Made by a program: the position numbers and the translations under genes. Shown in pieces: positions 11,401 to 36,863 of a stretch of DNA of 64,000 bases (the stretch's first letter is position 1; each line of letters begins with the position of its first letter). The notes beneath the pieces are model-generated. The model worked only from the letters and a program-made list of their open reading frames with translations. It had not been told where the DNA came from and did no database searches. The DNA lies in IMG/VR virus record IMGVR_UViG_3300045988_141926, positions 380-64,379 of that record, one strand, 5' to 3'. The stretch is from a virus.

Positions 11401-14400
11401 GTTTTTATTACCACCTACAGTTTTTCCTCCAAATTTAGCTCCATCATATGTAATAGCTTGTACCGTAGGAGGAGGCTCTACCATAGTAGTTATTTCTTTA
11501 TCTTCATAACCAGTAATAATAGGCACAGGTAAAACACATCCATCAGGTCCATAATGCTCATAAATAGGATTCTATACAGTTGTAGTCTCCTCTACAGGTT
11601 CACTAGGTTCTACCTCTAAATTATAACCCATTTTACCCATTTCTTTAACAGCTTCATCTGCTGTCCATCCAAAAGCATCAACTATGCGTTGGCAGGCAGC
11701 AATAGCTTCACTGTCATCAACCCTAACACCGATCTATTTAGAATCGGCAAGATTAGCTAACGTATCAAAAGCTGAAGATAATTGTTCTACCATTGTATCA
11801 ATTTGATCTTGATTGTATTCTCCACACTCTCTTAATTTAGCTATATAAGGAGAAGTATCAGCGTCAATCATAATTTTTTTCTAAGCTTCAATTCTAAATT
11901 TAGCATAAGCTTCTTTATTTCCTTGCATCATTTTAGGAATTAATGGGCCTGCTTTTTTGATAAAATCTTTATCTTTCGCTAAAATTTTATCAAATGTTTC
12001 TTCACTTACTCCTGCCAACTATGAAAAACTATCTGAATTAGCATTTAAAAAATCTCCAAATGCATCATATTCTGATTCTGTTAATTCTACTCCTTTAGAT
12101 AATTTCTCAGCATATTTATCTAAAGCTTTACTATTATCATTCCACGCTTCCTAAATATCTTCAATAGTTCCAATATTTAAACCAGTTTTTTTTCGTAATT
12201 CATTAACTGCTTCAGCGTCTCCATTAATAGCTTTCTATATTAAATCAAAATTTTCTATAATATTATCACTATCGCTAATCCAATCTTCAAAGCCCTCTTT
12301 TGTCATATCAAACATCTTAGCATATTCTTCAGAGTTCTACTTTAAAACTTCTCCTACTTCTGATGCTTTAGATTCTAAAGCAGCTTGATAAGAATTATTT
12401 AATGTTTCTTCATCATATCCTTCAATTTGAGGGACCCCAGAATCTCTTAACTTTGAAAATTCATTAACGGTAGATTGATTTTTATCCCAAGTTTCTTTCG
12501 CTTTAGAAGCGCTTTCCCAAGTTGTTTTACTATCAGCTTCAATCCCTACATAATCATCAACATTAGCTATAGTATCTTCAGATGCTAATTTATTTTCCAG
12601 CCAAGCTCGTAACTCTGAAACAGAAATATTTTTAGTCTCTTTCTAATCTTCATCTATATATACTTCAATAGTTTTATCATTCTATAATTTAGATAAATTA
12701 CCCCAAAAATTATTATCTTTATAAGTATATCCTCTCTCTTTTAAAAACTCTTGAATATTTTCATTTGAATTATTTAAAACATTAAAAGCGGTAGCAGACT
12801 AGTCGGTATAATCTGTAGTATTAGAATTACGGACTGCATCTTCAGCCATTTTATAAGCAATATCAGAAGCATATTCATCACTAACTCCGGCTTCTTTTAA
12901 ATCTTCTAAAATGCCTTCAGAAACCATTTTATTATACATATCATTAGTTTCTATATCAGCAATTCGTTGTGCCTATATAGTTAATGCTTCAATAGCATCT
13001 TGTAAAGCACTATTATTATCAATTAAATCAATAACGCTTTGATCTAATCCTAAATCTTTTAATGTATTAGGATTAATTTCTAAACTTGGATTACGTAATT
13101 TAGCATTAACAATAGTATCCAAATCTTTAGATGTAATCTATTCTACATCATTGTCATAATGAGTCTATCCACGTTTAGTATAATCAGAAACAATTTCTTT
13201 TTTATTCTAATCATATTCATATTTGTCTTTAAATTTCTATTGAGCAGCTTTTGCTGATAATAAATTAGAACGTTCTTCATCCATTGAAGTCCGCATAGTC
13301 TCAGCGCCAGTATCTGTAATATATTTACGCCCCTGAGCATCAATATCCCAATCCTATCCCTTTATTAAACCATATTTTTCAATTAAATCATCAACTTCAT
13401 CATTTAATTCATTAACAGCATCTCGCCATTCTATAGTTCCATAAGTAAGATTGTCAATATTTTTACGCTTATCATTTAAGCCAGATAAAGTACTATTTAA
13501 TGTATTTAATCTACTATTTACATCATCTAACGCTGTTTTAGTTTCTTCTAAATTTTTATTATTCTATTCAGCATTTTCCGCAGCGGCTCCAGTAGCATTA
13601 TCATATATCGCCCAAGCCGCTACCAAAGCCCCTAAAGCTACAATTAAAGGCCAAATAGTAGCTAAAACTGGAACAATATTTAACCATAGACCTTTTAGAG
13701 CAGTAGAAAAAGCATTAGTTGTTACCGTCGCCTTTCCTGCTACAATAGCTTCAGCTTGCAATGCTGTAGTTTCAGTAACTACTCCTCCCGCTGCTAAAAC
13801 TGCTTGGATAGCATTCTTTTTAAAAGCATCATTTAATTTTTTACTAGCTAATATATTATCTATTTTCTTTTTTTGATTCTGGGTTAATACTATTGTATTA
13901 GCTCCTATTGCTACATTTTCTAAAGAAAGTGTAAGAAATTGTTTCTAGGACTATTGTTGTAAAAAAGCATTAGCAGTACCTAATCCTCGTAAAACACTAG
14001 ACACCCCAGGAACAATCATAGAAATACTAAATAAAACAGATGTAAATTTTTCCCATCCAGAAATATCAGGATCAGATAATGTTTGCATCATAGAATTAAA
14101 TGATTGTAATGCCATTGCGGCAGAACCACAAGCAGAGGCCAATGATATTATACTCTAAGTGAAAGGTATTTTATGAATTGGTTTAAAATTAATAACTGCT
14201 TGATTGAGTCCTTCTTGTGCTTCTTTTGCTTCTTTAGTAGCCTATCCCCACTATTTTAATGCTTTACCATGCGCCTAAATATCACCTTTAGCCTATTTCA
14301 TTGATTTACTTGTTGAACGACCCATTTGTTCTAAAGCATTAGCCGCATTTTTTCCTTCAACAGTAGTATTTTTTAGAACTTCTGCTAATTGTTTAAAAGC

Positions 14401-16767
14401 CTAACTTACTTCTTTTGGCTTTCCTCCATCTAATGCACTTTCAATAGCTTCTAAAGCATTTTGAAAATCTTTTGAAGATTTTGTGACTTCATCTACTGGA
14501 CCAATAAGCATATCAATAGAAGTTCGAACCGTTTCAAAATCAATTTCACCATTTAATTTAGTATACTAAGTCCCTAATTTTTTAAGTCCTTCAATTGTTA
14601 AAGAGTATAAATCATTTCCTGATAATAAAGTTTCATTTGTTTCATGCCCAATTTCAATAAAAGTTTTATAAGCATTTGTTAATTTTTCAACTGTTTGTGC
14701 TAATTGAGACGCTGCCTATTCCTGAATATCTAATTTATCATTCTAGAAAAAAGCTAAATCATTTCTAGCAGCGACTAAATCTGCCTAATTACTTTCAGAT
14801 GGATTATTACGATATGACTACTAAGCTTTATCTTTATTAGCTTTTAATTTTTGTAAATAACTAGTACCATAATCATAGATTTGATTAGGAGCATTTAAAT
14901 CAATAGGATTAGTATCTTTATTTAATTGTTCTCGTAATTTAATTAATTTTACTGTTTCCTACTATTGTTTTTCAATAAATTGAATTTCATTTTCATAATA
15001 TCTTTTTTCACTAACAGATAAATTTTCAGACACTGTTGCTAATTTATTTTTTACTCCTAATAATTCCTAAGAATTTTTTAATTCCTGCTCTTGAGCTGGA
15101 GTAAAATTAGTTCTTGCTTCTAACTATAATTTGATATTATCAGAAGTTTCTTTAGATATTTTAGCATAAACTTTATCTGCTCCACCTACTAAAATTTGAA
15201 TATTATTTATTGCATTATCTAAAGCCGGCTAAATTTTAGAGCTTAATGTCTAACCAATTAATGATAAAAATCCTAATAATAAAGGTTTAATTCCACCAAT
15301 TTTATCAATAAAAGAATCAACGCCATCAACCATATCAGATAAAAAATCTGTAAATTTAATAAAAAATTTATCATCAATTAAATCGGTGTATAAAGCTTGG
15401 AATGAAGCTTGTAAACGCTTATTAGCGGCTTCCCAAGATTCTTCATAAATTTTCTATTGTTCAGTTAATGTTCCAGTAGCATTACGAGCAGTTTCGAGAT
15501 TTTCTTTCATAAAATCCCATTTATCCATTAATGCCATTAATTGTGTATATTGACGAACACCAGCAACAGTTTGAGCTAATGCCACTTTAGCATCTTTAGA
15601 AATTAATGGATTCCCTTCAGCGTCAAATGAATTCCATTTTTCACCTAAATCATCAAGAATATCATCCATCTCTCGCAACCCACCGTCTGCTGTTTTAATA
15701 GAAACACCAACAGTTTCAAGAGCTTGAGAATATTTGCCTAATGTAGTACCATCATCAAGAGTTTTACCTAACTCTAAATCTTGAATACGAGCAAATAATG
15801 TTTTGAATGCAGTACCAACCACATCAGCAGATTGACGAGTCGTAGCAGTTACAGTCGCCAAAGCTGAAGTAGCATATTCATAACTTAAACCTACTGTGTT
15901 AGACACAGCTGCAAATTTTTCTAATCCTGCTGCTATTTCATCTGTGCTTGATGCAGTAGCTGCACCTAATGCAGTCATAACATCAGCATAATATTCCAAT
16001 GACTATGATCCATCATAGAAGTTATTCCAGACAGCAGTTAATTGATCTGATATTTTATCTGCACTTTCGCCAGCAGCATTAGCCATTTTAATTGTGACCG
16101 CAGTTCTATCTTCTACTTCTTTGTCTGACAAGCCCTGTTGATAGTAAATCAAAGAAGCATCAGTATAATTTAATGTAGAAGTGCTTAATGCCTTTGCTGC
16201 TTTATTTGCTTTATCAGCAAATTTATCCATATAGTCAATATTATGACCAGTAACAATTCGAATATCATTTAATGAACTATTTAAATTCTAAGCATAATGA
16301 TAAGCTCCTTGTAAAGCTCCCATTACACCATGAATCATACTTGAAGAAATTTGCCATTTAACTGTATTTTTAACAGTAGTTAAAAAATCCTATAAACGAG
16401 CATTTAATGTAATCATTGGCTAATCAGCAGCTGCTATTGATTGAGCTAATTTTATAAATGCTTGTTGTCCAGTTGTTCCCGCTTGGAGTAAGCTGGTAGA
16501 TAATTCAGTCACATTAGTTTTTGATTTAGCTAAACTAGCATTTAATTTACTTAAATCATAATTACCAGTTTTCTAATTATATGCTTCATTTAAATGAATA
16601 GCTAGTTCTTTAGCCGCCGCAGAAGCTTCTTTCATTTGACTGGGATCAATACCTAAATCAGTACTATATGCTACTTTAGTTAATAACTGCTGTAATTCCT
16701 AAATCTGCTATTTTGCTTGTGTGGTATTCGCAGTAAAATCTAATGCGACATTTAGTTGTTTTGCCAT
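8494..16767 (-). CDS. Tail tape measure protein (~2757 aa) with many in-frame TAG codons
   Basis: A continuous frame runs from the ATG at ~16767 (SD AAAGGAG) to the TAA at 8494-8496. The regions 8400-8960, 11520-13560 and 14160-15450 were checked codon by codon. It has coiled-coil, low-complexity sequence and a central hydrophobic segment (13564-13761) typical of tape measure proteins, and the expected position. Confidence 0.7.
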
Positions 16768-16807
16768 AAACGGGACTCCTTTCTCTCATAATATAAACAA
16801 AAAAAAA

Positions 16808-16883: not shown

Positions 16884-17408
16884 TTATCCCAACTTGGTCA
16901 AAACATCTTTTAACAATCCTAATGTTTCAGGATTCTGAATATCATTAGTTAATTGCTCCATATCAAATGTTGTATCTTTATAATCAGTAGAAATAATATC
17001 TAAAATACCTGCCGCAGAATTTTTATACTCATAAATTGAATGAATAGTTTCCGCGACCCAACTTTTAATTTGTGCATATTCTCCTGGATTAATTTCTCCA
17101 AACACCTTAGCAGAAAAACCAGAGCCTACTACTAAATCATATAATTTCTTTGGATCTTCTTTTTGCTTGTCAGTGAAACTTACATTTGTATATGCCATAA
17201 TCATTTTTAAAATAGTATGAAGATATACACGAGCAGGGTTATAATAACCATTCTTATCAATAGAATCATTAATAATCTCTGAAATAAGATTTAACTTATC
17301 TCCAATAGGAAGGTAATCCTTAACTTCAATAATCTAATCTCCCCATTCAAATGTTGATACTTCTGTATTTTTATTTAAATTTAACTTTGAAAATGATACT
17401 TTTGCCAT
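16884..17408 (-). CDS. Tail assembly chaperone (by position), ~174 aa, one in-frame TAG
   Basis: ATG at ~17408 with SD AAAAGGAGG. Stop TAA at 16884. Lies immediately upstream of the tape measure gene. Confidence 0.5.
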
Positions 17409-17452
17409 TTCAAAAATCCTCCTTTTACACTTATTTATATTATACTAAAAAA

Positions 17453-18544
17453 TTAGTTTATTGTCAACCCAGATAATTTCAAATTTTTTCTTACATTATC
17501 TAAAATTTCTTTTTCCAAATCTTCATCAATTTTTTTGCTATCAATAGATGTCGCCATTGTAATTTTTAAATTTTCATATAAAAATGTCGCTATGTCCTAA
17601 CCCGTTTTATTTAAATAAGAATTTAAAGTATTAATAAAAGTTAAAAACTAAATACTAGCAATATCCCAACTACGTCCTTTTGTTCCTGATTTTACCTAAA
17701 TATTAAATAATATTTTACGAGTCCGATTATCCGCCGCAATAGCATCGCCTCCACGATACCAAGCCGTCGAATTTAAAGAATCCATAACTAATTGGATAAA
17801 ATTCCAACGCCCCTCTTCATTATAAACCGATTTCTCGAATGGAGAAACTATTATAGGATTTTCTAAATTATTTAAAGCTCTTAAATATTCTACATGTTTT
17901 CTACTAATATGATTAATAAAAGCATCATACATCTATCCTTGCGCAGCTACTTTATTCCCACTATAAAATATATCAAATAAACTCTTATTAGTCATATGTG
18001 TATCTTGAACTCGTTTATACCATTCTGTATTTTTATAATATTTACCTAAAGCTAAATGTATATTATGCCCTTCTACCTTAGTTAATTTCACTTTATTAAT
18101 TGAATTTTTCATATCCTCAAAATGTTTTTCTAATGCCATTTCAATATCACTCTAATATATTGTATTTAAAGTTGTTCGGTATTCTTTCATTAATGTCTTA
18201 TTAACTTGTATTTTCTAAGAAGTATAGCTATTTATTAAATCAGATTCTTTGTTAACAAAAGTATAATGATATTCTTTATCCCATTTTAAAATACCCAATA
18301 AAGAAACTGGAGTATTTCCAAATACTTCAGTATTAATCTATTCCCAAGAATTATATAATGCTTTTGGATTTTTTGCTGCCAATATATTACCATTTACTTC
18401 AGTTAGATAATTTTTAATTATAATCTATATTTTTTCAATAAAAATATTTTTTAATTCACTATTCCAAAATTCTTGAAAGATTTTTTTAAATTCTGCTTCA
18501 TATAAAAAATATCCTCCAAAAACTATGCCTTCTTGATTAACCAT
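17453..18544 (-). CDS. Structural (tail) protein, ~363 aa, about 6 in-frame TAG
   Basis: ATG at 18544 with SD GGAG. The frame is continuous through the fragment ORFs 17933-18139 and 17696-17932 down to the TAA at 17453. Confidence 0.5.
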
Positions 18545-18554: not shown

Positions 18555-18600
18555 CTAAAATAAAAAAATGGGAAGAGGAATAAATCCTCTCCCCATAAAA
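18555..18600 (-). terminator. Hairpin after the major-tail candidate gene
   Basis: gggaagaggaataaatcctctcccc flanked by A/T runs. Confidence 0.4.
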
Positions 18601-18613: not shown

Positions 18614-19690
18614 TTACCAATTATAACTATCGTGAGATTTCTGGTGAACTGTACTATGACGATGTAAGTCATCATTATCCAGATATTCAATTACTTGAAT
18701 TGCAGCCAAAACTTTCTTACTATGATTGAAACGAGTGTAATCAGGGAATGCGTCTAAGGTGAAAGTAAATGTACTTGGGTCACCAGAAGAAGCCATAGTA
18801 AAGGTGAAGTTAGACTGAATCTTGCAGTTAGGAATAATGAATTCAGCAGGCATATCTACACCGTTAGTATCACGGAATAGAGTAGAAGCCTCAAGATAAT
18901 AGTTGCCACCAAACTTATCAGCAGTAATTTCCATCTGAGTAGCACCAGACTTGCGCTCAGTATAATAATCAACTAGCACAGAATCAAACTTTAGACGATT
19001 TGGTAGAGTGACTACATCGTAAGCCGGGTCGCCACTTTCACTCTCATATTTATGTCCTTTATTCTGCTCATCTTCATAAGAAGCTAAACCAACATACATT
19101 TTATGATCCATAACAGCTACACGATAGTAGGTTTTACCATCTAGGTCAGTTACAGTCTCAGGCATAGCTTCACTATCAATAGCAGTATCATCACCCTCAT
19201 GAACAGGAATATAAGGCTCAGTAGTAATTTCACCATTCTTCATAAACATTACATAAGCAAAGTTATCACCAGCATTACCAGGTAGATAAGGCTTATTCTC
19301 AGTATAAACGGCAAACTTAAATCCAGTAGCATCAAACTTGAAACGTAATGAATCACTAGCATCAACAGTCTCAGTAATATGCTGATAGATTGGCTTATCG
19401 GCATTAGCAGCAATTAGGCCAGCACCAGAAAGAATCATAAATCCTTCAGGAGAAATTAGAGCATCCTCCATAGTGAAGGTCAGAGTTCTTTCACCTTCCC
19501 ATGCTACCAAACGAGAGTTACCACGACCACCTTGTGCATATACAGTGGTAGCAGCACCTTCTAAACTAGAAGTTTTCAGGGTGTCAAAATAAATAACAGG
19601 TTCACCAGCATAGAACACCTTATTACCGATTTTCTGTGCTGACTTAGCCTTTAATACAACATCACAAATTTCGCGGACACCGAATTTCAT
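18614..19690 (-). CDS. Major tail (tube) protein candidate, 358 aa, no TAG, elevated GC
   Basis: Intact ORF with SD GGAGG. Its GC content and codon usage differ from its neighbours, like a highly expressed structural gene, and it is followed by a terminator. Confidence 0.45.
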   Translation of the reverse strand: MKFGVREICDVVLKAKSAQKIGNKVFYAGEPVIYFDTLKTSSLEGAATTVYAQGGRGNSRLVAWEGERTLTFTMEDALISPEGFMILSGAGLIAANADKPIYQHITETVDASDSLRFKFDATGFKFAVYTENKPYLPGNAGDNFAYVMFMKNGEITTEPYIPVHEGDDTAIDSEAMPETVTDLDGKTYYRVAVMDHKMYVGLASYEDEQNKGHKYESESGDPAYDVVTLPNRLKFDSVLVDYYTERKSGATQMEITADKFGGNYYLEASTLFRDTNGVDMPAEFIIPNCKIQSNFTFTMASSGDPSTFTFTLDAFPDYTRFNHSKKVLAAIQVIEYLDNDDLHRHSTVHQKSHDSYNW

Positions 19691-19717
19691 AGTGTTATTT
19701 CCTCCTTGTATTTTTAA

Positions 19718-20446
19718 TTAATGAATGTTTTTCATCCAATTATCCGGGGTCCCTTCAGGTTTACCGCCAGCTAAACGCTAGCGTACATCCAGGTCCCAAG
19801 CAGTATATAGCGTATATCTCTCCATTAAATCATATAATTGGAACATTGTCAGATTTGTCAAATCCTATAATGACATTGAACACAATCCAATAGTCAAGAT
19901 TGACATATACTAACTAAAAACACTTACATTCGAATTACCGTTTTGGGCGGCAACTCGCTGTCTCCCTCGCATTAGCTTTTGAGCAATCTCACGAGCCTTA
20001 TCGTTGGCAGGATTGAAAGCCTACTAATCCATCGGGCCATTGTGCATACAAAAGATTAAACGCAACACTTCTTGTAATGCTTCAAAATTATTTCCATCTA
20101 CTGTAATTGGAGGAACACCTTCCTTCATAAATAACAATGAATTCGGCGTCACATTTATTTTGTATGATGGGAATAATAAATTTAAAACATTTAAAATGTT
20201 AGCTTTTTTATCCTTTGTTTCATCCTATAACATTATCGTCATAAATATCTAAAAATTATTGATACTGTCTAGAATAGTTTTGTCCTCTATAAACATTGTT
20301 TTATGCAAACAGAGGGTCTATGCTCCAATAAAAAAATCAGATTCCCCAATAAATGAAATTTCTTTTATCCTTGGTTGATGAGCGACTAAATTACATTCAG
20401 GAATCAACATATCAGTTCCGCAAATTAAATTTAAGCGGTAATCCAT
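19718..20446 (-). CDS. Head-tail joining / tail completion protein (by position), ~242 aa, several in-frame TAG
   Basis: Hand translation. The ATG overlaps the upstream TAA as TAATG. The TAA stop lies just upstream of the major-tail gene's SD. Confidence 0.45.
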
Positions 20447-21048
20447 TATTTACTAATGTAATCCTTGAATTCTTTAATAAATTGTTCCTCTTTAATTTTG
20501 CCGCTATTTTTATCAGGATAAGTTGGCATATATTTTTCATCTTCGCCACCATGAACAGTGCGATACATCAAACATAACCCAGCAAATTCATCGGTTAAAA
20601 CAATCTAAGTCGCACCCACAAATTCTAAATAACCAATACCAGTCAATTTTTTCAAATTGAACATTGAATCAATCTCTCCAGCAATTTTATATGGGCGCAA
20701 TGCATAATCTCTTAAATTCCATTGATCAAAATGACATACAATATCAAATTGAATAGTGTTATCTCTAAACTCTGGATTTTCACTGGGAATAAAATTATCA
20801 AAATTAATTAATACATAATTTAAAACAGAACCATCAACATATAATTTAGGAACTATTTTAATATTAGTCCCTAGTAAACTTAAAGACTAATCTTCAGTAA
20901 GATTAGGTTTTTCCATAGCATCACTAGTGGTATAATATAATAATTTTTTTAAACGATTATTTTTTAATATTTCATTAACAATAATCCCAGTGTCTTTTTC
21001 CATAGATAGAAAACTTGATTTTGGAATATGATATCCGTCTATTCTCAT
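20446..21048 (-). CDS. Head-tail connector-region protein, ~200 aa, 2 in-frame TAG
   Basis: ATG at ~21048 with SD AAGGAG. Translated by hand. Confidence 0.45.
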
Positions 21049-21070
21049 GTTTTCAATCTCCTTTTACTCA

Positions 21071-22225
21071 TTAAAACAATGATTCTACTACTATAGTTTT
21101 TCGACTAGTTCCATAAACTAAATCAAACTAACCACTATAAGTAGAATCCCATTTAAGTTTAATTGTTGCAAATCCTTTATCATTAGTTCCTTCGCTAATA
21201 ATTTGAACAGGAACATCATTACCTTCAATTTTCCAAGTCCCTCGAATATTTTTAATATTTAAATTAAAATCATATTCTTTTTTAGGTTTAATAAAGGTTT
21301 CACCAACAATATTTAAAATTTTATTATTATCTTTGTTATCATCTATAATTTTACGTTTTAATATTGGATCGGGTATTTTAAATACATCAGCTAATCCTGC
21401 GTCTCGATCATCAGTAAATTCATTAGCATAATATTCAACAGCGTTTACTTCAATAACGCCAGTCATGCTAATATTATTTACAGCTTCAACTCTCCAGCAG
21501 GTATCATAAACTGACCCATCTTCCGGCCAAATATAAAACTTCTAATAACGCTTAAAAAATTTCAAAGTTTTTTCATTTTTAGGAATTAATAAATTTAAAG
21601 AATAATTTGGATTATCTACACTAGTAGTATGTTTTTGAATATAATCAATTTTAGTTTCTACTGGGCCTCGATTAGCCACATAAACTACATTTAATTCATC
21701 ATCCATCATAAATGGAATCTAATAAGTACATCTACGAACATCTCCGCGGAAATAAGCTAATTCATCTAAATCTTGTAAATAAATTAACCAATATGTTCCA
21801 GTATTACACCATTCAAATACATCTCCGCAATTAAATTTATGTTCAAATCCAATCGAAATAACTTTATCATCATAATCCTATTTTAATTTATTAGGATTTA
21901 TTAATGCTCTAACTGGAGGTAAAATATTTTTTTCCTATTTAGTTTCTACCTCTGTAGCTGCACATTTACGTACCCAAGCCGCCTAATAAGAATACTTAGT
22001 GGCTTGATCTAACGAATGTCGTTTATCTTTGATCATTCGCTACTGTTGGGCAAAACCACCCGCACTCATTAATCGTTTAGCCATATTTAAACTACCATCA
22101 ACTGAATCTGGCTAAGGAATTTTTATACTTGTATCACCTAAACGAGCCCCTACAAGATTTACACTTTTATTAGTATTTAAACCATAAGGTAATAATTTTT
22201 CCATTCTTTCTGGACGTTTTGGCAT
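21071..22225 (-). CDS. Structural protein, ~384 aa, about 7 in-frame TAG
   Basis: ATG at ~22225 with SD AGGAG. Includes the fragment ORF 21128-21466. Stop TAA at 21071. Confidence 0.5.
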
Positions 22226-22524
22226 TACTTTTTAATCTCCTATAATAAACTAATACATTCAAATACAGTTTTTCTATAAATTGAGAATTCAATATCATTT
22301 AAAACATTTAATCCTTCTAATTTACTAAGCAACTATAAAAATCGCGGGTCCTAAATAAAAATTTCATTTAAGCCCGCAATTTCAATAATAACTGTATTTA
22401 ATTGTTTATCCCAATCTTCTTCATTTTCTCTCATAGGGATTAATTTCCACAGTTGATTAGTTAATCTTACTATATTTTTTTCCATGACTTCATCGGAAAT
22501 ATCTGTATGATATTTAGTTATCAT
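22225..22524 (-). CDS. Small connector-region protein, ~99 aa
   Basis: Hand translation. TAATG overlap with the downstream gene. Confidence 0.35.
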
Positions 22525-23101
22525 AAGGATAATTTTTATAATGAAATACGCCCCAATTGGATTCGTATTTCCCTTCTACTAATTTACGACGTTTATATAA
22601 ACGTTGCATATGAAATGATTGTCTCTAACATTCACTCAGTAAAGACATCAATTTTTGTAAATGATTAGCCTATGAAGTCATTTTAAAATCTGAACCACTA
22701 TACTTCATACGAGTGTGTTCAATAGAAGTAACTTGGCGCTATACCCAATTTACCATCATCAATATAGCTAAAATATTAATTTCCTCCGGTGTTAATTCAG
22801 CTCCAAAAAATGAATGTTCTATCATTACACGAGGAGGGCGGATTTCTGATTCTTCATCTTTTTCATCTTCCCACAAAAGACCAATTACAAAATCATCTTC
22901 TAATATTTCATTTTCATATTTAATTTCCTAATCAATAGTATAGTCATAAATATCAAATCTAGGAAATTCAAATTCAGGTAAAATATTTAGAAGTATTGCA
23001 CGTAAATCTTTAATTGTATCTTCTGGAGTTAATTCAATATAAAGGTCATCAGTAATTTTCCCAAGGAAGCGATTATAAATATCAGTGAATTTAGTTCCCA
23101 T
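22514..23101 (-). CDS. Connector-region protein, ~195 aa, in-frame TAGs
   Basis: ATG at ~23101 with SD AGGAGG. Stop TAA at ~22514. Confidence 0.4.
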
Positions 23102-23122
23102 GACACGCCTCCTATTTATTTA

Positions 23123-23710
23123 TTATTCAGCAGATTTAGTTTCAGTTTGCTTTACTACTTTATAAGCATTTCCAGAAGTACGACGTCCTGCTGGAGCAGA
23201 TTCTGTAACACGTCTTTCAGCTGGCTTATCTGCAATAGTTTCCTTTTTATCATCTTCTTTACTAGCGCGATCATTTTCGATAGCCTTATCTACATCAAAA
23301 CCAGTCTTAGCCTTTAAAGCTTCACGTTTAGCCATATCAGTGATAGGCAATTGAACAGACATAGTTTTAATTAAATCAATAACTCCAATAGGAGCAAAAT
23401 CAAGAGCATCTAAAAATGCGTCAATAGAACCGTTAAGAATTAAATCACGGACTTGCTCTTCTGACATATTATATTCAGGCTCACGATGAACATTTAAATC
23501 GTCAGTAACTTCATTTTCCATAATCTGTAAGAAATTAGCAATTAATTCACGTCCACCAGGTTGATAAGTCAATTTTTCTAGTTCCCCAAATGGAATGCGC
23601 TTTACCTCACCGGGCGCCCACTCGCGTCTCAAATTACTCTCAGGAATTCTATATACAACAACACTAGTACTTCTATTTTTTACATTAAACATATCTTCAG
23701 AACGAATCAT
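23123..23710 (-). CDS. Head-associated protein, 195 aa, no TAG, elevated GC
   Basis: Intact ORF with SD AAGGAG and stop TAA. Lies just downstream of the capsid gene. Confidence 0.5.
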   Translation of the reverse strand: MIRSEDMFNVKNRSTSVVVYRIPESNLRREWAPGEVKRIPFGELEKLTYQPGGRELIANFLQIMENEVTDDLNVHREPEYNMSEEQVRDLILNGSIDAFLDALDFAPIGVIDLIKTMSVQLPITDMAKREALKAKTGFDVDKAIENDRASKEDDKKETIADKPAERRVTESAPAGRRTSGNAYKVVKQTETKSAE

Positions 23711-23736
23711 TTTATTATCTCCTTTTTCTCTAAAAA

Positions 23737-23783
23737 AAATAAGGGGAGAGGGAGTAAATCCCTTCTCCCCTTAAATGAAATCT
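23737..23783 (-). terminator. Strong hairpin immediately after the major capsid gene
   Basis: aggggagaggga-gtaaa-tcccttctcccct. Confidence 0.5.
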
Positions 23784-23798
23784 ATATTAAGGTTTAAA

Positions 23799-24905
23799 TC
23801 AAATTTGTCCACTTAGACGTCCATCATAGGTAGCAACCTTACCAGTTACACCATCATAGTTCCAAGTATACATCTGACCCATTAATGAAGTATCAACATA
23901 AGAGCAAATGTTGTTAGCCAACATACAACCAACGCCGACCTTCTTATAAACCTGAATCTCACGAGAACGATCATAATTGCTGAATTCATCAACAATAGTG
24001 CCACCCTCGAAAGCAATCTTTACAGGCTTGCCATCAACACCAGTAGGAATAATCCAAGCATAACCAGGATCAATAACCTTACGGGTATTACTTTCATCCT
24101 CGAAGCCCTGCTCTAGAATAACAACCTTGGTTCCCTTATAAGAAGCCAAACGACCAGTATTCCACAGCTCAGTCTTCATAGCTTCAGTATAACGCCAAGC
24201 TTCATTAGGAATCATACGAACAGCAAATTCATAAGTACAATAAATAGTAGGAGTACCATAAGCAGAAGCGATGGTAATCAAACGATCCATAGCACCCTCA
24301 TCGAAACCTGCTGCAGCAACACGGTTAGCAGGAGGTAGCTGATTGATAGAAGACTTCAAAGCTAAAGCAACTTCCTTGTAAATCAGTTCATCCATACCAT
24401 CCATAATAATCTTGGTAACTTCAGCGAAGTCAACACGACCATCTAAGAACTCTTCGAAGCCAATTTGAGCAGCTCCACCGATAGCAGAGGTACGAACCTC
24501 AAAGCTCTCGTTCTCAGCAGGTCCCAGCTTGAAGACTTCATAAATACCAGCCAGTCCAACACGAGTTACGAACTGCTTAGCACGTGCGCGTGTATTTAGA
24601 GGACGACGGAAAATGGGCTTATCACCCTGAGCAAACTGCTTAACTTCAGCAAACTGCTCATAAGACTGAGAAACCTTCTTAGGAAGAACTTCATCCAAAG
24701 TTTCCTCAATCATTGAGAAAATCAGATTTTTATTTTCACGATATAGAGCATTGGTACCAGCCAGCTCATTCATCTCATTACGTAGAGTATCATTCAGAGC
24801 CTCATAAGAAAGGTTCTGACCATTATAACTGTAAGCCACAGGAGAAGAAGGATCAGCCTTAGCAACAGTCTTCATTAAAGCAACTAAATTGTTTCTATCT
24901 AACAT
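23799..24905 (-). CDS. Major capsid protein (HK97-fold type), 368 aa
   Basis: Intact ORF with elevated GC and no TAG. The sequence resembles phage major capsid proteins. It lies downstream of the scaffold gene. Confidence 0.7.
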   Translation of the reverse strand: MLDRNNLVALMKTVAKADPSSPVAYSYNGQNLSYEALNDTLRNEMNELAGTNALYRENKNLIFSMIEETLDEVLPKKVSQSYEQFAEVKQFAQGDKPIFRRPLNTRARAKQFVTRVGLAGIYEVFKLGPAENESFEVRTSAIGGAAQIGFEEFLDGRVDFAEVTKIIMDGMDELIYKEVALALKSSINQLPPANRVAAAGFDEGAMDRLITIASAYGTPTIYCTYEFAVRMIPNEAWRYTEAMKTELWNTGRLASYKGTKVVILEQGFEDESNTRKVIDPGYAWIIPTGVDGKPVKIAFEGGTIVDEFSNYDRSREIQVYKKVGVGCMLANNICSYVDTSLMGQMYTWNYDGVTGKVATYDGRLSGQI

Positions 24906-24922
24906 TATTCTTCTCTCCTTTC

Positions 24923-25855
24923 TTACGCAATACGTAGAATCTTAGCGCCACGTTGTCCATCAGGCATAGTATATACCTTAACAACCTGCCACTTCATATC
25001 CTGGCTCTCATCCTTAGCTAAAATACCCTTGGCATCAGGAGCTAGAATGTCACCAACAGAAACACTATCTTCATTAATCATATTAGTAGTGTAATGATCA
25101 CCAACATTAGTCTTAAAGACACGAGGAACCATTGCGGTACCTGGAGTCATGCGCTTCTCATGATATACACCAAGCTTCTTATATGGATCATTAGTCCAAG
25201 TTAGCTCTTCGTAAATATCAGCGACATCAGTTAGAACCTTATCATAAGCATACTTTACAGGTACAGGAGTCTTAGTTTGATTGGTCTTAGGATCAATCTC
25301 ATACTCTACACCATTATAAGTAAACTTATTGTCCTTAACATCATAAACTTCGCCAGCAATAGTAACGGTCTTTAGGCCCTAGTCTAAAGAAACAGTGTGC
25401 TCAAGCACCTTATGGTCAGCACCAGTTTCATCAACACCATTCCAGAAACGTCCACCATACTCAACCTCAGTATGCTCCCAATCATATGGAGAATAAATAC
25501 GAGCCTGATAATCGTCCTTTAGCATAGCAAATTCGCAATCCCACTGCTTAGTTCCATCAGGATGATCACGATATAACTTAATCTCATTGTAAACTAGCAT
25601 CCACTCGCCCTTGCCAGTAAAATTCACTTCACCAATGCCATTATCATTAGCGGCGTAATCGTACTTAACAAACTGACCGTTTTCAAGAATATTAATATCC
25701 TTGTTAGCAGGCAACTGAGCATAAATTTGAGCGGTTCTTTGTGCAGACAGGTGATTTGGCTCAACCTGACCATAACCAAACTCAACATACTTAGCCTGTG
25801 ACTTAGGTGGATTCTTACCAACGCCTAAATGAGAATTTAAAAAATCCTTAAACAT
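24923..25855 (-). CDS. Capsid-associated protein, ~310 aa, one in-frame TAG
   Basis: The fragment ORFs 25379-25855 and 24923-25150 share a frame and are joined by a TAG at 25379. GC is elevated. Confidence 0.5.
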
Positions 25856-25873: not shown

Positions 25874-26830
25874 TTAGTTTTTATTGGCTGATTCTAGAAC
25901 AGCCTTGACCCAAGCTGGCATTCCAGCATCACTGTCATTATCTAAATTGCTTAAATTATAGGTAGTTGGGCCTTTATCATTATTATCATCATCAAGATTA
26001 AAATTAACCTTGTTGCGAACGCAAATAACAGAAAGTTTTGCTTCAATATCATCAACAGAATACTTGTCAATATTATCAATAACATCTTTCTTATCATCAT
26101 CAGACAACATATAGAATGATTGAATCATAGCTTCTTTATCCTTACGCTCAATACTATTTTTGAACTCAATCAAAGAAGTATTAGTCTCACTTAGAGTCTT
26201 ATTTTCAGCCTCTAATAAACTAAATTTATTTTGCAACTCTTCATACTGTGCCTTTAAATTAACATATTCTTCAATTTCATCCAAGGAATACTTTTTCTTT
26301 TTCTTGTCATCCTTATCATCTTTTGAAGGATCATCATCTTCATTTTCTGACTTTTGACCATTATTTTTAGAAGAATTATCATCTTTTTTCTTCTCAGGGT
26401 CGTCAGAATTATCGCCCTTATCATCGTTTGCCTTTTTATTTTCTTCTTCTTCTTCTTGCTTTTTCTTAAATTCGGTTTCATAAGCTTCAACCGCTTCTAA
26501 AGCAAATTGAGGTTCTGCTGCTGGATTATAAGATTTAGTCACTTCAATTAAACCTTCACCAGGAACAAGACCATCAGAATCATTTAAAGAAAAGTTTAAA
26601 CGATAATATTTCATATCTCCGCGGTCTTGAAGAATAGCAAATTTTTGACTATTATCTTCAAAAACACCATCAATACGATACTTAGAGCAATAATTGTTAG
26701 AGCCATCAGGGAAAGCTTTATTTACATACTCCCATAAAGCACTCCATAGAGAATCTCCGATTTCCACGGCGTATCTATTAAACACTTTTGCTCCTCCTTC
26801 TTTTAATAATTCTTTTAGTTCATTCATCAT
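25874..26830 (-). CDS. Scaffolding protein from an internal in-frame start (318 aa)
   Basis: Met-Met start at 26830 inside the longer frame. Has an acidic/Lys-rich coiled-coil low-complexity core. Confidence 0.45.
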   Translation of the reverse strand: MMNELKELLKEGGAKVFNRYAVEIGDSLWSALWEYVNKAFPDGSNNYCSKYRIDGVFEDNSQKFAILQDRGDMKYYRLNFSLNDSDGLVPGEGLIEVTKSYNPAAEPQFALEAVEAYETEFKKKQEEEEENKKANDDKGDNSDDPEKKKDDNSSKNNGQKSENEDDDPSKDDKDDKKKKKYSLDEIEEYVNLKAQYEELQNKFSLLEAENKTLSETNTSLIEFKNSIERKDKEAMIQSFYMLSDDDKKDVIDNIDKYSVDDIEAKLSVICVRNKVNFNLDDDNNDKGPTTYNLSNLDNDSDAGMPAWVKAVLESANKN

Positions 26831-27466
26831 TGAATATAGTTCATTTTTAAAACTATCATCAAATGAAAGAGAAAACTTTGTAATAGAGGAGCCTTCGAAG
26901 CAAGGTTCACACTCTTCTCCTAAAATACAAAGTTTAGAAATAATTGCTTCATTAATAATGAAAAACTACGGCTTTCCATTATTATCTTTCGTCCAAGTTC
27001 CATCTAAAGTGCCTTCATCGAGTTCCATAGAATGATTATTACCCTACTCAACAATGCGCTTACATTCTGGATATTGGCCGGTCCATAAATATCCTTCAGT
27101 CATAAGATATTCATGTTCATTAACGCCATCATCTAAAAATTTCTAAAACCAAACCTTGGCACCTAAATCTACAAAACCATAAGGTCTAGTAGTGTCTTTC
27201 ATTTCAAATTTACCATTTGAAATGTCAATAATTCTATTGTGTTCCTCAAAATCTCCATTAGATTCATTGTAAAAACCAACAATAGGACTGCCAGGGAGAC
27301 TGTTAGCCATCTCCCTTGCAATTTCTTTAGAAATAATGCTTCGATTGCGATTTGGTTCATCCCCAACGTAGCAAACTTTAATTTGGCATTTAGAAATCAA
27401 AGGATTAATAGGAGTTACATTAATAAATTCACAAGGCGTTTCAAGTTTAATACTTTGATGCTTCAT
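25874..27466 (-). CDS. Prohead protease-scaffold fusion frame (~530 aa)
   Basis: ATG at 27466 with SD AGGAGG. The frame continues through TAGs into the charged coiled-coil scaffold region. The layout resembles lambda C/Nu3. Confidence 0.45.
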
Positions 27467-27477: not shown

Positions 27478-29139
27478 TTAATTCATTGACTCTTTATTTT
27501 TTATGGTTTTTTCACTTTTCTAATCATCAGCCTTTTCAGGTCGCCCAGACTATTTTGTTTCAGTAGTCTGTTTTGTAGTAGTCTATTGATTACTACTTCC
27601 TGAATTATTTTGTGTTTTATTCTAATTGTTTGAACCTTTATTACCCAAAACATCTTGACTGCTCATAGTAGAAGACATTAATGGTGGGATCATAATTTCA
27701 GTTAGTTTCAACACATCATTTTCAAATACCGCAGTATTTAAAATGAAACTCTAAGAATGACCAAGAGCAATTTGAGGTAACATCTTAGAATAACCAAGTT
27801 GCGTTTGCTCTTTATATAATTTTGACATTTCTTTATAATTATATTGTGTAGTTTCAAGCATATAAAATTTAAAACTATATTTCTTATTGTTCGCAACCTT
27901 CATCTTTACTATTCTATCAAAAAAAATGTTAAATTGCAACAACAAGTTTCTAACAGTTGACTCATCATTAAGGATAGACTTCTCTAATGATAAATTACCA
28001 TCAGTATTGAATAGATTTTGAGAAATACCTAAATTATTATAAACAGTACGTTCAACTTTTGCTAAATCATCTGTAGTAGTTGTAGTATTTTTATCTGATA
28101 AATCAATAGATTGAACATCAGTAAATGTTGTTAAAACATCAACGCCAATAGCTCTTGATAACATAGCAACAGCATTATTGTGTATGTCACGAGATTCATC
28201 AATATCAAATATTAAATCACCATTTTTATCCATTGGAAGTTTTTGAACAATAATTTTTAACAACTTCTACATTTGTTTTCTGCGGTCTAAATCTTGAGCA
28301 GCATCTAAATCCATAAGAGCAGGAATAGAATTAATAAATGGTGGGGTATCGCTACCATTAAAATTAAATTTCACACTTAATTCTGGGGATAGTAAATACC
28401 AGCTTCCACTATAATCTCCCTTAATATCAGGAAGTAATTTTCCTTTCTTATATAAAACATATCCACGCTAAAATTCTTCAGGGAATAATTTTAATACGCG
28501 CATACGATAATTAGGATCTGGGAACTAATCAAAAAACCGCATATCAAACTCAATTGCTGGCATACCAGCCACAAAGTATCTAGAACGGCAATAACTAGCA
28601 GGCAATTCTTGTAACATTAAACTATTTGCAGATTGCACTATATATCCATAATAACAACCATTTTTCATAATACTTTGAGCAATATCACCGCAGATTTTTT
28701 TAATATAAGTATTATCTAAGTAATTTAATAACTTTGAAAAATCTTTTAAAACTTTTTCATCTTTTACTGTATCATCTAAAATTTCTGGAGCGACATACCA
28801 ATCATATCTATACAAATAAGCAAAATAATTACATACTCGCTCATAAATGCCACTAATATCATAAAATAAATTAGAAATTCTACGCATTTCAACAATATCA
28901 CGATTTATCATAGCTCGTAATACATCATTTTTAGTGACCATGCGACATGGACCACGACGATTAGGATATAATCGAGCAAATGACCCTAAATCTAATACAG
29001 CATCATCTAATGTTTGAACCCCAACTTTTATCTTACGATATTCTGTTGGATCAGCAGTTCGATAATCACTTGTTCCATTGCTGATATTAAATCCTTTGGA
29101 GTGGATGATTTCCTAACGTGATAATTCTTTAGTATCCAA
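27478..29139 (-). CDS. Portal protein (~553 aa), TTG start, in-frame TAGs
   Basis: The fragment ORFs 28525-28941 and 27751-28263 share a frame. SD AAGGAGGTG lies upstream of the TTG. The TAA overlaps the next gene's SD. Confidence 0.55.
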
Positions 29140-29518: not shown

Positions 29519-31252
29519 TTAGTTTAAGAAACACCAATCTTTAGCATTAAACTTTTTACGTTTCTTCTTTTTATCTTCTTCTAATTTTAAATAATATAGT
29601 CCATATTCAAAAGCAGAAAATTTATCTTTTCGGATACTTTTATTTGCTTGCTTCAGGATAATATTTACTCCTTCAGTTTCTTCACGCAAATTCATCATTT
29701 CTTCTTTTAATATGGAAGTTAAAGTAAATGGTTTTAATTCTTCTGCCCTCTATTCTGGAGTCATAGTTTGACCTTTCTTTTTAGCAAGAAGTTTATTTTT
29801 TGCTACGCGCTCATCAATTAAAAATTTTACTTTTCCAGAAGCGAGTTGTGATTTAGCAATAGCGTGAGCTTCTGTATTAAGTGGCGCATTAGCTTTTATA
29901 ATATACATAGCATCTAATACGGTATTAGATGTTTTATATTTCTTGTAAAATAAATCATCATCATTAACAACGCCAAAATCAGGGAAGATTTCGTTGGTTT
30001 CAGGGTCAATCTATGTTTTAACCATATAATCAATTAAACCAATTCCTAAACCATTACCATCAATTACAATTCTATCAGCATTATATTTATAATATAATTT
30101 TTTTAATTTAATAGTTTGGTCTTCAAAATGCTCATCAGACAATGTATATAAGTTTACTAAACTTTTAATTGAACCACCTTGTGATTGTGGGGTCACTTTA
30201 AATACACAAATAACTGAATCACATCCTTTACGGCCAACGTCGACCGCAAGTACATAAGATGCTAATTTTGAATTACGCCCAGATGCTTCATATTCAGGCT
30301 AATTTAATATTCTATTTCTATCAAATATTTCAGCATTAAAAAACGCATCTTCTACAGTACCAGACCATTTACTTTCATATTCTCGGTCAAATGAACTTTC
30401 ATTGAATGTTCCGTCCATTTTTAGGTCTTTAATAAAATTCGCATCCAATAATTTCATTAAAACAGGAATACGATAAGTACCACCCATAATAATGGATTGC
30501 TAAGGTTTAACAATTTCCCAAACTAATAATTGAATTAATTTATCATAAGGGAATGTATTTTTATACCCAGCAGTAGTAATATAAATTTGAGATTTATTAA
30601 GAGTTTCATCAGGTTGAGTAGTACCATCCATACACATACGAGAAATATTCATTGTAGGGATAATAACTTGTGATAGAATATCACCATCAACACCAACACA
30701 CTCTTCGATTAAACCACCATGGCGACGTTTACCACGAGAAGACTCTCTCGCGGCAATATTGTCAAAATATGAACCATTTTTAAATACATATTTAACATAA
30801 TCTTTTCCTTCAAGTGTCTAGCCACGGCGCCAATCTATTTCTTTCTAAAATGCAGGAATAAGAGTACAAATTTCTTGGACTTTTTCTTTTACAATTCCAG
30901 CCGCTTGTTCTTTACCACCAGAAGTAATAAATAATTTACATCTGGGATATAAAATCGCACGACACATTAAGACCATCATTGATAAAAAAGATTTTGAATA
31001 AGCACGAGGAAATACTGCATAAATATATTTATGACGCATCGCAGCGCGCAAAAAAATTCTCTAATAAAAATAGAGTTTAAAATGTTGAGGGCCGCCATCG
31101 GGTCCTGCCATAAAGTCGATAAACATATCTGGATATTCTCTCCAAAAGGCTATGTACTATCTTGCTTCTGGTATAATTGCACGAAGACGGTCCTCTGAAA
31201 TTCCAATCTTTTTACGCTTCTAAGATAAATCAAGTAAATCCTATAAAGCCAT
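29519..31252 (-). CDS. terL: Terminase large subunit (~577 aa), about 8 in-frame TAG
   Basis: P-loop-like RAYSKS and a nuclease-domain region (ESKWSG). The fragment ORFs 30845-31051, 30299-30487 and 30011-30196 share a frame. SD GAAGGA. Confidence 0.7.
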
Positions 31253-33557: not shown

Positions 33558-33725
33558 TACCTCCAGATTTTTTTACGTCTTCATTATACAAAAAATTTTT
33601 CCAGGTGTCAAATTTTAATAAATGCATTTAAAAAATTTTTAAACGATACTATTAATTGGAAAAAATTTGACAATAAAAAAAATTTTTTGTATTATTATTA
33701 TAATAAAAAATAAAAGGAGAAGTTT
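33558..33725. promoter_or_regulatory. Divergent promoter region between the late operon and the plus-strand block
   Basis: ORF-free and AT-rich. Contains TTGACA...TATAAT upstream of the 33726 gene. Confidence 0.45.
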
Positions 33726-34124
33726 ATGGTAATTGCTATTGTTATATTAAGTATATTATTAATATTATCTATTATATATAATATATTGTTTACAAAGGGA
33801 GTAGTTAAACTTCTAGACCCTGAAACTATTGAACAAAAATATAATTTAATAGCAGATTATTATGAAGATGCAAATAATATTGAAGAAAGTTTCCCTTGTT
33901 GTTTACTATTACATCTTCAATTTAATGCGAAGGAATTCGCAAAAATCACAGACTTCTCTAATTATGAAAATTCTAATATAATCGCTTATTCAGTTTTGTC
34001 CAAGAGCCCACCACCGCCTGGATACGCAAATCAATTAGAGAAAGACGGCTCTATAAGAATATTAGTCCGCAATGTTCGAGTAAATAAATATAAGGATGGT
34101 GAATATTTTTGGGAGCCTATGTAA
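33726..34124 (+). CDS. Membrane-anchored hypothetical protein, 132 aa
   Basis: ORF with an SD. Hydrophobic N-terminus. Confidence 0.5.
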   Translation: MVIAIVILSILLILSIIYNILFTKGVVKLLDPETIEQKYNLIADYYEDANNIEESFPCCLLLHLQFNAKEFAKITDFSNYENSNIIAYSVLSKSPPPPGYANQLEKDGSIRILVRNVRVNKYKDGEYFWEPM

Positions 34125-34315
34125 TTGTTATCTTTTGGATAATCATTTCAGCATTAGTAATGTTTGAATATATTGATGCAATTCAAAGCGCCGGTGAAAA
34201 TAAATTAATTGTTTGTTTAATATTTTTTATTGGTGGCCCAATATTTGCTGCGAGTGATTTATTACAAAGAATTTTAGATATATTTTTACCGGAAGGGTGG
34301 AATGGTGATGACTGA
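34109..34315 (+). CDS. Small membrane protein, 68 aa
   Basis: Hydrophobic ORF. Confidence 0.4.
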   Translation: MGAYVIVIFWIIISALVMFEYIDAIQSAGENKLIVCLIFFIGGPIFAASDLLQRILDIFLPEGWNGDD

Positions 34316-34334
34316 AAAATAGATTAAATATATT

Positions 34335-34625
34335 TTGAAAAATTTTAAACGAGGCACTATTATTCTATTTATGGGTGTATCATTTAATCAATATATTAAT
34401 CTTGAACAATTAACTGAAGCAGGATATACTTGTATCCTATTGGGTGAAGGTCAAGATTATTGGCCCTATATTAAAAATAATATGATTATTTATGTGGATA
34501 ATATTGATACTAAAATAAATTGTTATCCACTACATTGTCCTATTTTTGTATATAATAAAAATCAAGTTATTAACGCGGAAGATAGAGATGTGCGCGTTTG
34601 GGCAGAAGTGTTAAAAGAGGAGTAA
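34335..34625 (+). CDS. Hypothetical protein
   Basis: ORF. Confidence 0.4.
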   Translation: MKNFKRGTIILFMGVSFNQYINLEQLTEAGYTCILLGEGQDYWPYIKNNMIIYVDNIDTKINCYPLHCPIFVYNKNQVINAEDRDVRVWAEVLKEE

Positions 34626-34626
34626 T

Positions 34627-34920: not shown

Positions 34921-34924
34921 TTTT

Positions 34925-35242: not shown

Positions 35243-35244
35243 TT

Positions 35245-35949: not shown

Positions 35950-35977
35950 GGGAGGTTTTTTGTTGCCCTAAGATTGT

Positions 35978-36780: not shown

Positions 36781-36863
36781 ATAGGTTATTTTTGAAAAAA
36801 CCTCTTGACAAATTACCCCAAGTGTGCTACAATGATTACAGTAAAACAAAGGAGGACGATACA

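Follow-up and report, generated by a model that had tools for sequence, protein, structure and literature searches.

In the 64,000-nucleotide stretch studied here (positions 380 to 64,379 of the IMG/VR virus record IMGVR_UViG_3300045988_141926, hereafter the window), three genes of a late module that reads TAG as glutamine were found to be almost free of in-frame TAG and to carry a codon-specific synonymous bias. The genes encode the major capsid protein (MCP), a predicted capsid decoration or cement protein (Dec) and the tail tube protein. The pattern is probably explained, with an estimated probability of about 0.75, by translational selection in mutation-selection balance, with an extra penalty on the suppressor-dependent TAG. 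The three genes and a fourth TAG-poor gene, 23123-23710, are together referred to as the islands, and these are real and non-random. The coordinates and compositions of the features are presented in Table 1.

TAG content and codon usage of the islands

The pooled islands contained one TAG in 1231 codons, compared with about 21 expected (Poisson P=1e-8). TAG accounted for 1 of their 38 Gln codons, in contrast to 37.7% in the rest of the late genes (binomial P=3.6e-7). TAG density is therefore not merely a matter of gene length, which had been named earlier as the outcome that would undo the pattern and is ruled out by these values. The sole in-frame TAG, at 25379-25381, is located in the lineage-variable inserted domain of the Dec gene, and the Gln codons of the MCP gene were 10 CAG and 2 CAA. 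In the neighbouring genes one in-frame TAG was detected per about 57 codons (17.4 per 1000), in agreement with the TAG every ~100-200 nt of the original prediction. The same prediction gave zero or one TAG for the islands. This holds in frame, but each island gene has 6-15 out-of-frame TAG trinucleotides on its coding strand.

The determined GC contents of the islands (36.1-41.4%) were lower than the 40-47% first proposed, and 46% was reached by a single 300-nt interval only. Neighbouring genes varied between 25.5 and 34.4% and were not uniformly at ~28%. When the expected GC content at third codon positions (GC3) was conditioned on the amino-acid composition of each gene, the shift persisted in the tube, MCP and Dec genes (z=5.7-8.0) but was absent from 23123-23710 (z=0.7), whose GC content is raised through amino-acid composition only. 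About 58% of the total GC elevation was located in codon positions 1 and 2, mostly due to amino-acid composition, and about 42% in position 3. The GC1 and GC2 values were 0.53 and 0.37 in the islands and 0.40 and 0.31 elsewhere.

The islands favoured T-ending codons in the four-fold boxes, with GCT at 81% (54% in other genes), GGT at 63% (38%), CGT at 74% (38%) and ACT at 75% (59%). In the two-fold boxes G/C-ending codons were favoured: AAG at 79% (16%), CAG at 66% (5%), GAG at 46% (16%) and TTC at 45% (15%). ATA was not used in the islands, compared with 20% elsewhere, and CGA and GGG had nearly disappeared. The preferred set consisted of GCT, GGT, CGT, ACT, CCT, TCT, GTT, AAG, CAG and GAG, together with more TTC and AAC. 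The shift is codon-specific, with no general GC enrichment, and such a pattern is usually a sign that particular pairs of tRNA and codon are under selection. The preference for AAG, CAG and GAG was common to the islands and the GC-rich plus-strand early-type block at 35.6-64 kb.

GC elevation and absence of TAG are not strictly coupled, contrary to what had been proposed. The gene 19718-20446 combines a high GC3 with 8 TAG among 14 Gln codons. In the recoded relatives described below, 53% of the Gln codons of this family were TAG, with up to 18 per gene, which makes it the most TAG-rich family of the module. The gene uses ATA, GGG, ACG and CCG and does not have the optimised codon usage. The positional counterpart of this gene in Bacillus phage Kirov is annotated as 'putative tail assembly chaperone'.

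Table 1. Coordinates and properties of the features in the window. Expected GC3 is conditioned on amino-acid composition.
Feature	Position	Strand	Codons	GC (%)	GC3	Expected GC3	z	In-frame TAG	Remarks
Predicted decoration/cement (Dec) gene	24923-25855	-	310	39.8	0.326	0.180	7.7	1	
MCP gene	23799-24905	-	368	41.4	0.318	0.179	8.0	0	
Conserved gene after the MCP terminator	23123-23710	-	195	36.1	0.185	0.168	0.7	0	
Tail tube gene	18614-19690	-	358	38.6	0.265	0.166	5.7	0	
GC3-high, TAG-rich gene	19718-20446	-			0.339		6.9	8	directly upstream of the tube gene
Terminase large subunit (TerL)	29519-31252	-							
Portal	27478-28941	-							
Likely protease/scaffold gene	25874-27466	-						3	
Tape-measure-like gene	8494-16785	-	2764					56	
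Putative intrinsic terminator/attenuator	23731-23773	-							directly after the MCP stop; ~14-pair G+C-rich stem 23740-23773, U8 run 23731-23739
Putative intrinsic terminator	18558-18596	-							after the tube gene; perfect 12-pair stem 18568-18596, then T-rich run
Sigma-70-type promoter	33583-33611	-							TTGACA-17-TATAAT; head of the late module
Metallophosphatase (Pfam)	58490-59230	+							
HNH (Pfam)	60966-61649	+							
HD (Pfam)	51492-52097	+							
NT5C (Pfam)	44513-44956	+							

Conservation of the pattern among relatives

A scan of IMG/VR resulted in 80 loci with 10 kb on each side of the MCP gene, 61 of them recoded and 19 not. De-replication at a portal identity of at least 90% reduced the recoded loci to 25 clusters. 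The TAG share of Gln codons in the 61 recoded relatives was 1.4% in Dec, 1.5% in MCP, 2.0% in tube and 5.5% in the 23123-23710 family, compared with 19-53% in ten other gene families. CAG accounted for 49-68% of the Gln codons in Dec, MCP and tube, and for 4-22% in the other families. In all 25 recoded clusters the TAG share of the islands was less than 0.37 of the share in the other genes, and 18 of the 25 cluster representatives had no TAG at all in Dec, MCP and tube. The more distant phage phAss-1 resembled them: its MCP gene has no TAG and uses CAG for 15 of 15 Gln residues, its tube gene has no TAG, and these two genes and the gene upstream of MCP are TAG-free and GC-rich.

A codon-bias score that ignores Gln codons was trained by contrasting MCP with portal and TerL. 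In 11 gene families outside the training set, MCP-like codon bias and TAG share were correlated with a Spearman coefficient of -0.94 (P=2e-5). The MCP-derived weights ranked the families alike in the 61 recoded relatives, so that the bias beyond amino-acid expectation is accompanied by a consistent preferred set.

Occasional in-frame TAGs were found inside the MCP, Dec and tube orthologues of several lineages, which indicates that suppression is operating when those genes are translated. In the unrecoded relatives CAG made up 41-75% of Gln codons in the same genes and 13-32% elsewhere; the CAG bias thus predates recoding or is independent of it. The AAA/AAG ratio of the abundant-protein genes was 0.46 in recoded and 2.5 in unrecoded members. 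The MCP identity to the window was 81-87% in unrecoded clades and 77-100% in recoded ones, with both kinds interleaved within one family, which implies that recoding was gained or lost repeatedly over short distances.

An apparent in-frame TAG in the MCP of standard-code relatives was rejected because it is located upstream of the start codon. Protein conservation was rejected as the cause of the TAG paucity, as the mean identities of Dec and tube (~64%) do not exceed those of the TAG-rich portal (66%) and TerL (75%). Contigs of this phage family were found in metagenome-assembled genomes labelled Mollicutes, Clostridia, Lachnospiraceae, Erysipelotrichaceae, Gastranaerophilales, Bacteroidales, Muribaculaceae and Treponema; labels from so many phyla are evidently due to mis-binning and are unusable as host evidence.

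Proposed penalty on TAG beyond that on other non-preferred codons

Fold changes from the other genes to the islands were determined with one representative per cluster, and the pooled data agreed. The TTG/CTG, CAA/CAG and AAA/AAG ratios decreased 9.4-, 8.5- and 7.1-fold, respectively, whereas TAG/CAG decreased 102-fold. Overall, the drop in TAG/CAG was about 100-130-fold against 7-9-fold for the comparable synonymous pairs, an excess of about 11-fold in the cluster set and about 14-fold in the pooled set. Compared with CAA, TAG was 12-fold under-represented in the islands (odds ratio 0.083, P=3e-37). TAG is more than one further non-preferred codon. In ordinary late genes the TAG/CAG ratio was 2.6-3.5, with about 8 in the TAG-richest families, and was near to the analogous TTG/CTG ratio of 6.4-8.4 but never exceeded it. 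This suggests to us that TAG is nearly neutral in genes with a presumably low protein output and distinctly costly in those with a high one.

The earlier suggestion of selection against dependence on suppression, combined with a different codon optimum, is supported in its core by the comparative evidence, i.e. by the 25 of 25 lineages, the correlation with codon bias and the excess depletion of TAG. It has to be modified in that more than half of the GC elevation is due to amino-acid composition, and the optimum is a specific codon set, not 'higher GC'.

Genetic code and identity of the genes

The part of the window from 1 to 33572, with about 30% GC, minus-strand genes and a GC3 of 0.165, is the late module, with TAG=Gln, of a large gut siphophage that is a relative of phAss-1. 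With the standard code it was broken into short open reading frames (ORFs), whereas reading through TAG resulted in continuous long ORFs; the coverage by ORFs of at least 150 codons increased from 29 to 59 kb. Between 2 and 56 in-frame TAGs are present in each of a number of genes, among them TerL, portal and the tape-measure gene. In the alignments of 8 genes with 10 unrecoded orthologue sets, TAG stood opposite Gln at 55% of the aligned residues, followed by Glu with 9%, which points to code 15 (TAG=Gln). ARAGORN detected no tRNA genes, and hence no suppressor tRNA with the anticodon CUA, in the 64-kb window or in 26 related stretches, which are parts of a genome of about 130-197 kb.

Along the late module the order is TerL, portal, the likely protease/scaffold gene, Dec, MCP and 23123-23710, followed by several head-completion and tail genes, the tube gene and the tape-measure-like gene. 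The nearest annotated relative is phAss-1 ('Caudoviricetes code 15 clade'), with an MCP identity of 50%. Farther relatives with a common gene order are the Enterococcus phages EF1 and VRE9 and Bacillus phage Kirov. No match to a GenBank phage was obtained by megablast of 17-30 kb.

The product of 23799-24905 was identified as MCP by tblastn, with 50% identity to phAss-1, 41% to Enterococcus phage EF1 and 24% to the annotated MCP of Kirov, and by a match to phrog_4088. The 18614-19690 protein matched, by tblastn, the annotated 'tail tube protein' or 'major tail protein' of the Bacillus phages Kirov, Thrax3/4/5, KoopaTroopa and PJNS-type PJN02, as well as phrog_2729, and the position of its gene is as in the gene order of Kirov. 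The 23123-23710 protein matched phrog_30998. No Pfam match was obtained with the island proteins, and the PDB sequence and profile searches with the tube, Dec and 23123-23710 families gave chance-level matches only.

The assignment of Dec is based on structure prediction. A short Enterococcus-phage homologue aligns to the N- and C-terminal thirds of the 24923-25855 protein (E=1e-8 and 1e-9) and gave, with a diverse alignment, a confident predicted model (predicted local distance difference test score, pLDDT, of 87). The AlphaFold2 model of a nearly identical Dec protein, determined with a shallow alignment, had a pLDDT of 50 and was unusable. According to the predicted structure of the homologue, the protein shares its fold with the trimeric cement proteins of TW1, FCWL1, Pam3, BB1 and XM1, which marks 24923-25855 as the gene of a predicted capsid decoration protein. 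Between its conserved parts lies an extra lineage-variable insert of about 130 residues, which fits a surface-exposed decoration protein. The position of the gene beside MCP suggests that Dec may bind at the three-fold or quasi-three-fold sites of the capsid at about 1:1 with MCP. In solved virions cement proteins occur at about 1:1 with MCP, for instance 420 cement and 415 MCP subunits in T1 (PMC11945409). By analogy with the virion architecture of other phages, MCP, Dec and tube would be the three proteins needed in the greatest numbers.

Explanation of the pattern

The proposed explanation is as follows. AT-biased mutation would drive the Gln codons from CAG toward CAA and TAG. Where a suppressor decodes TAG, the codon would drift near its mutational equilibrium in modestly expressed genes. 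MCP, the roughly equimolar Dec and the tube protein would be needed in hundreds of copies per virion, and selection for fast and accurate translation would hold the preferred codon set in their genes. The same selection would purge TAG harder than any other non-preferred codon, the likely cause being that the suppressor tRNA competes with release factor 1 at each TAG. Each TAG would then cost yield, as truncated or slowly made protein, in proportion to the amount of protein produced. The GC islands would reflect the amino-acid composition of the abundant structural proteins together with this codon choice, and the putative terminators after MCP and tube, with a single consensus promoter upstream of them, would fit a boost of those genes at the transcript level. 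The composition, the codon statistics, the identities of the genes and the conservation of the pattern across lineages are shown by the data, and we infer the ranking of expression, the cost of suppression and the function of the terminators.

Several points weigh against this explanation. The TAG-decoding machinery is assumed, with no tRNA gene in the window or the flanks searched, and 'most highly expressed' refers to a virion stoichiometry known from other phages. Codons are called preferred as judged from the phage genes, not as matched to a tRNA pool. Two genes fit poorly: 23123-23710 is TAG-poor without a GC3 shift, and the likely protease/scaffold gene has optimised codons (z=5.3) and yet 3 TAGs. 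The pooled relatives are phylogenetically related, so the pooled P-values overstate independence, which the grouping into 25 clusters corrects in part. The reference pair TTG/CTG, taken as neutral, may itself be under selection.

An unlikely alternative is that TAGs are positively selected in low-copy assembly proteins, where they would throttle the yield from a shared transcript, with the TAG-free genes at the unrestrained end of a designed gradient of stoichiometry. The TAG share is continuous, from about 1.5% in MCP, Dec and tube to 49-53% in the families of 21071-22225 and 19718-20446, and the TAG-richest gene immediately precedes the TAG-free tube gene; Borges et al. report a few families significantly enriched for recoded stops in other phages. 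However, even the top TAG/CAG ratios, about 7-8 in these two families, do not exceed the corresponding first-position T/C ratios of Leu codons in the same genes (TTG/CTG 6.4-8.4), so mutation pressure alone can suffice. The 56 TAGs in the 2764 codons of the tape-measure gene would moreover need very efficient read-through, which leaves little throttling from a few TAGs.

It is rather improbable that MCP, Dec and tube were kept in the standard code for reasons of timing, i.e. in order to be translatable before or without the suppressor while the genes rich in TAG would be delayed, which would divide the late operon into two regulatory parts. A role of recoding in timing the expression of late and lysis genes has been proposed (bioRxiv 10.1101/2021.08.26.457843), and a host-type consensus promoter drives the module, so that its mRNA could precede suppression. 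In contrast, portal, protease/scaffold and TerL carry 3-11 TAGs each and are needed with or before MCP for prohead nucleation, which would make early MCP alone useless. The in-frame TAGs in the MCP, Dec and tube orthologues, and in the Dec gene of the window, would be lethal without suppression, and the depletion is graded with codon bias instead of being all-or-none.

An artefact of composition, in which the GC content follows from the amino-acid make-up (Ala, Gly, Val, Asp, Glu) and TAG is rare through few Gln residues or short genes, is very improbable. The raised GC1 and GC2, the missing GC3 shift of 23123-23710 and a milder GC bump at the MCP region of the unrecoded relatives and of Kirov and VRE9_4 speak for it. 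Against it, GC3 of three genes is above the amino-acid-conditioned expectation, the TAG share of Gln is already controlled for Gln content and gene length, and the presence of out-of-frame TAGs makes the depletion frame-specific; the conditional tests hold on independent genomes also.

Recent horizontal replacement of the islands from standard-code, higher-GC relatives, not yet ameliorated, is hardly credible: standard-code relatives do occur in the same family (19 of 80 loci) and phage structural modules are generally mosaic, but the pattern is present in all 25 recoded lineages and the distant phAss-1, the identities to unrecoded and recoded relatives are alike for Dec (61.6 vs 64.0%) and tube (64.2 vs 63.7%), as for the neighbouring genes, GC3 in these genes of the unrecoded relatives is lower (0.19-0.23 vs 0.26-0.31), and the shift is codon-specific (T-ending in four-fold boxes), with no uniform GC difference.

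Translational selection with an extra penalty on TAG has several consequences. The comparative evidence across 25 lineages indicates that TAG=Gln decoding carries a cost in a recoded phage: TAG is near the mutational expectation in ordinary late genes and is purged about tenfold harder than other non-preferred codons in capsid, cement and tube. Models of recoding are thereby constrained, as TAG within the late module appears to be tolerated at a cost and is not favoured throughout as a regulatory mark. The quantitative prediction is that truncation or slowed decoding at TAG would increase in proportion to the output of protein. For annotation, marker genes such as MCP and tube may look standard-code in a recoded phage, and code detection relying on them can miss recoding.

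A wider reading is doubtful. According to it, the TAG count per gene is a translational gradient in one long late transcript, incomplete suppression helps to set the virion stoichiometry, and the genome has two translational regimes. If the gradient is true, proteins of about 10^2-10^3 copies would have no TAG, low-copy assembly factors would have TAG at up to half of their Gln codons, and the codon statistics would be an evolutionary read-out of the in vivo suppression cost, bearing on why phages recode. If the two regimes are true, the early genes and the three abundant virion genes would use G/C-ending host-type codons, and the remaining late genes would depend on AT-rich codons, TAG and phage-supplied tRNAs.

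Comparison with known systems

The case is an ordinary one of codon selection linked to expression, here with a reassigned stop among the codons; the principle is already known, and the phage represents no new kind of system. Among 74 phages studied by Lucks et al. in 2008, head and tail genes were biased to host-preferred codons, as seen in landscapes of GC3 and the codon adaptation index (PMC2266997). The non-random GC3 and codon bias at high-copy structural genes, persisting after amino-acid control, is shared with those phages. In contrast to them, the synonymous set here includes a reassigned stop, which is its most avoided member, and the bias separates the three presumably most abundant proteins from portal, tape measure and connectors, with host preference outside the comparison.

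In the ciliates Oligohymenophorea sp. PL0344, Paramecium and Tetrahymena, highly expressed genes have a higher GC content and fewer reassigned codons, which was attributed to inefficient translation of the reassigned codons or stronger selection for the canonical ones (PMC10553269). The AT-biased genome and the relation between expression, GC content and reassigned codons are similar here. However, the ciliates are fully reassigned and have altered release factors, whereas the host on which the phage imposes TAG=Gln presumably retains termination at TAG, and a larger penalty per codon is therefore expected than in ciliates. Expression was measured in the ciliates and is deduced here.

In recoded gut phages, lysis genes were enriched in recoded stops, as was a tail tube family of crAss-like phages (bioRxiv 10.1101/2021.08.26.457843), and the MCP of crAss-like phages carries reassigned stops, which were used as evidence of recoding (PMC7886860). 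The amber- and opal-recoded gut phages (Borges et al.; Yutin et al. 2021; Ivanova et al. 2014 cited there) resemble the window in that recoding is limited to the late structural genes of a low-GC genome, in-frame TAG is absent from early-type genes, and phages with the standard code are close relatives of recoded ones. Those studies differ in having sought enrichment of recoded stops and not depletion in MCP, Dec and tube tied to codon bias; no report of such TAG depletion in recoded phages was found in a limited literature search. phAss-1 has the architecture of a siphovirus and a tape measure of about 3000 aa, and its terminase, portal and tape-measure genes use TAG for Gln (Babkin et al. 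2023, PMC10607447). That paper lists the TAG-carrying ORFs, with no discussion of TAG-free abundant proteins (PMC10607447). phAss-1 is a separate genus-level lineage of about 136 kb, whereas relatives of the window reach about 197 kb.

Terminators and promoters

The original prediction placed a hairpin after each island gene. Such structures were found after MCP and tube, and none after 23123-23710 or 24923-25855. The MCP element (fold -25.9 kcal/mol, z=-2.3) and the tube element (-21.9 kcal/mol, z=-2.7) both have the form of intrinsic terminators and would be expected to terminate transcription, as judged from stem and T-run. A hairpin with a T-run was conserved after MCP in 92% of 79 relatives and at the same position after tube in 55% of 67 relatives. 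The corresponding values after the control genes portal, TerL, 22514 and 23123 were 0-5%.

The promoter at 33583-33611 matched the consensus at 11 or more of 12 positions in 91% of relatives and is the sole conserved promoter-like site upstream of the capsid genes. Dedicated sigma-70-type promoters before the island genes were rejected, as no comparable conserved site is present within 300 nt upstream of any of them. Conserved consensus promoters were found at 33583-33611 and 17439-17467 only.

The region 33573-33725 is a divergent control region. Its minus-strand promoter (33611-33583) is directed toward the late module, and a near-consensus plus-strand promoter at 33667-33695 (TTGACA-17-TATTAT) faces the low-GC plus-strand ORFs of 33726-35388 that precede the GC-rich block. 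The gene 16884-17408, just upstream of the tape-measure gene, probably encodes a tail assembly chaperone. The gene has a perfect TTGACA-17-TATAAT promoter of its own on one side (17467-17439, minus strand), kept in 85% of relatives, and a strong terminator on the other (16838-16807), kept in 100%.

Other features of the window

The composition within this one phage genome is sharply bimodal, with 30% GC in the late module and 42-46% GC in the plus-strand blocks. The blocks, 35600-53000 and 55200-64000, hold about 60 small packed ORFs with strong ribosome-binding sites and a GC3 of 0.57, which lack in-frame TAG and have almost exclusively TAA or TGA as stop codons. No in-frame TAG was detected in 42 plus-strand ORFs at 36.8-63.9 kb (4721 codons), which end with TAA or TGA, and these early-type genes are compatible with the standard code. 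The same two-regime arrangement was observed on two independent IMG/VR contigs of about 197 kb. A search of the whole window for Rfam families gave no match.

In the late module, an 86-codon minus-strand ORF at 22226-22485 with three in-frame TAGs, not visible with the standard code, fills the apparent gap of about 280 nt between 22514-23101 and 21071-22225. Two minus-strand genes, 53804-54286 and 54543-55172, contain TAG, have 27-31% GC and are located between both GC-rich plus-strand blocks. The palindrome TTGTTAAAAATTTAACAA and its close variants occur at about 8 sites within 35974-37879. With up to 3 mismatches, 17 strand-hits were counted window-wide, 14 of them in 35974-37879, against 0.86 expected. 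The sites cluster in an ORF-poor segment of about 0.9 kb exactly at the junction of low and high GC, and the cluster looks like an operator array for a putative DNA-binding regulator.

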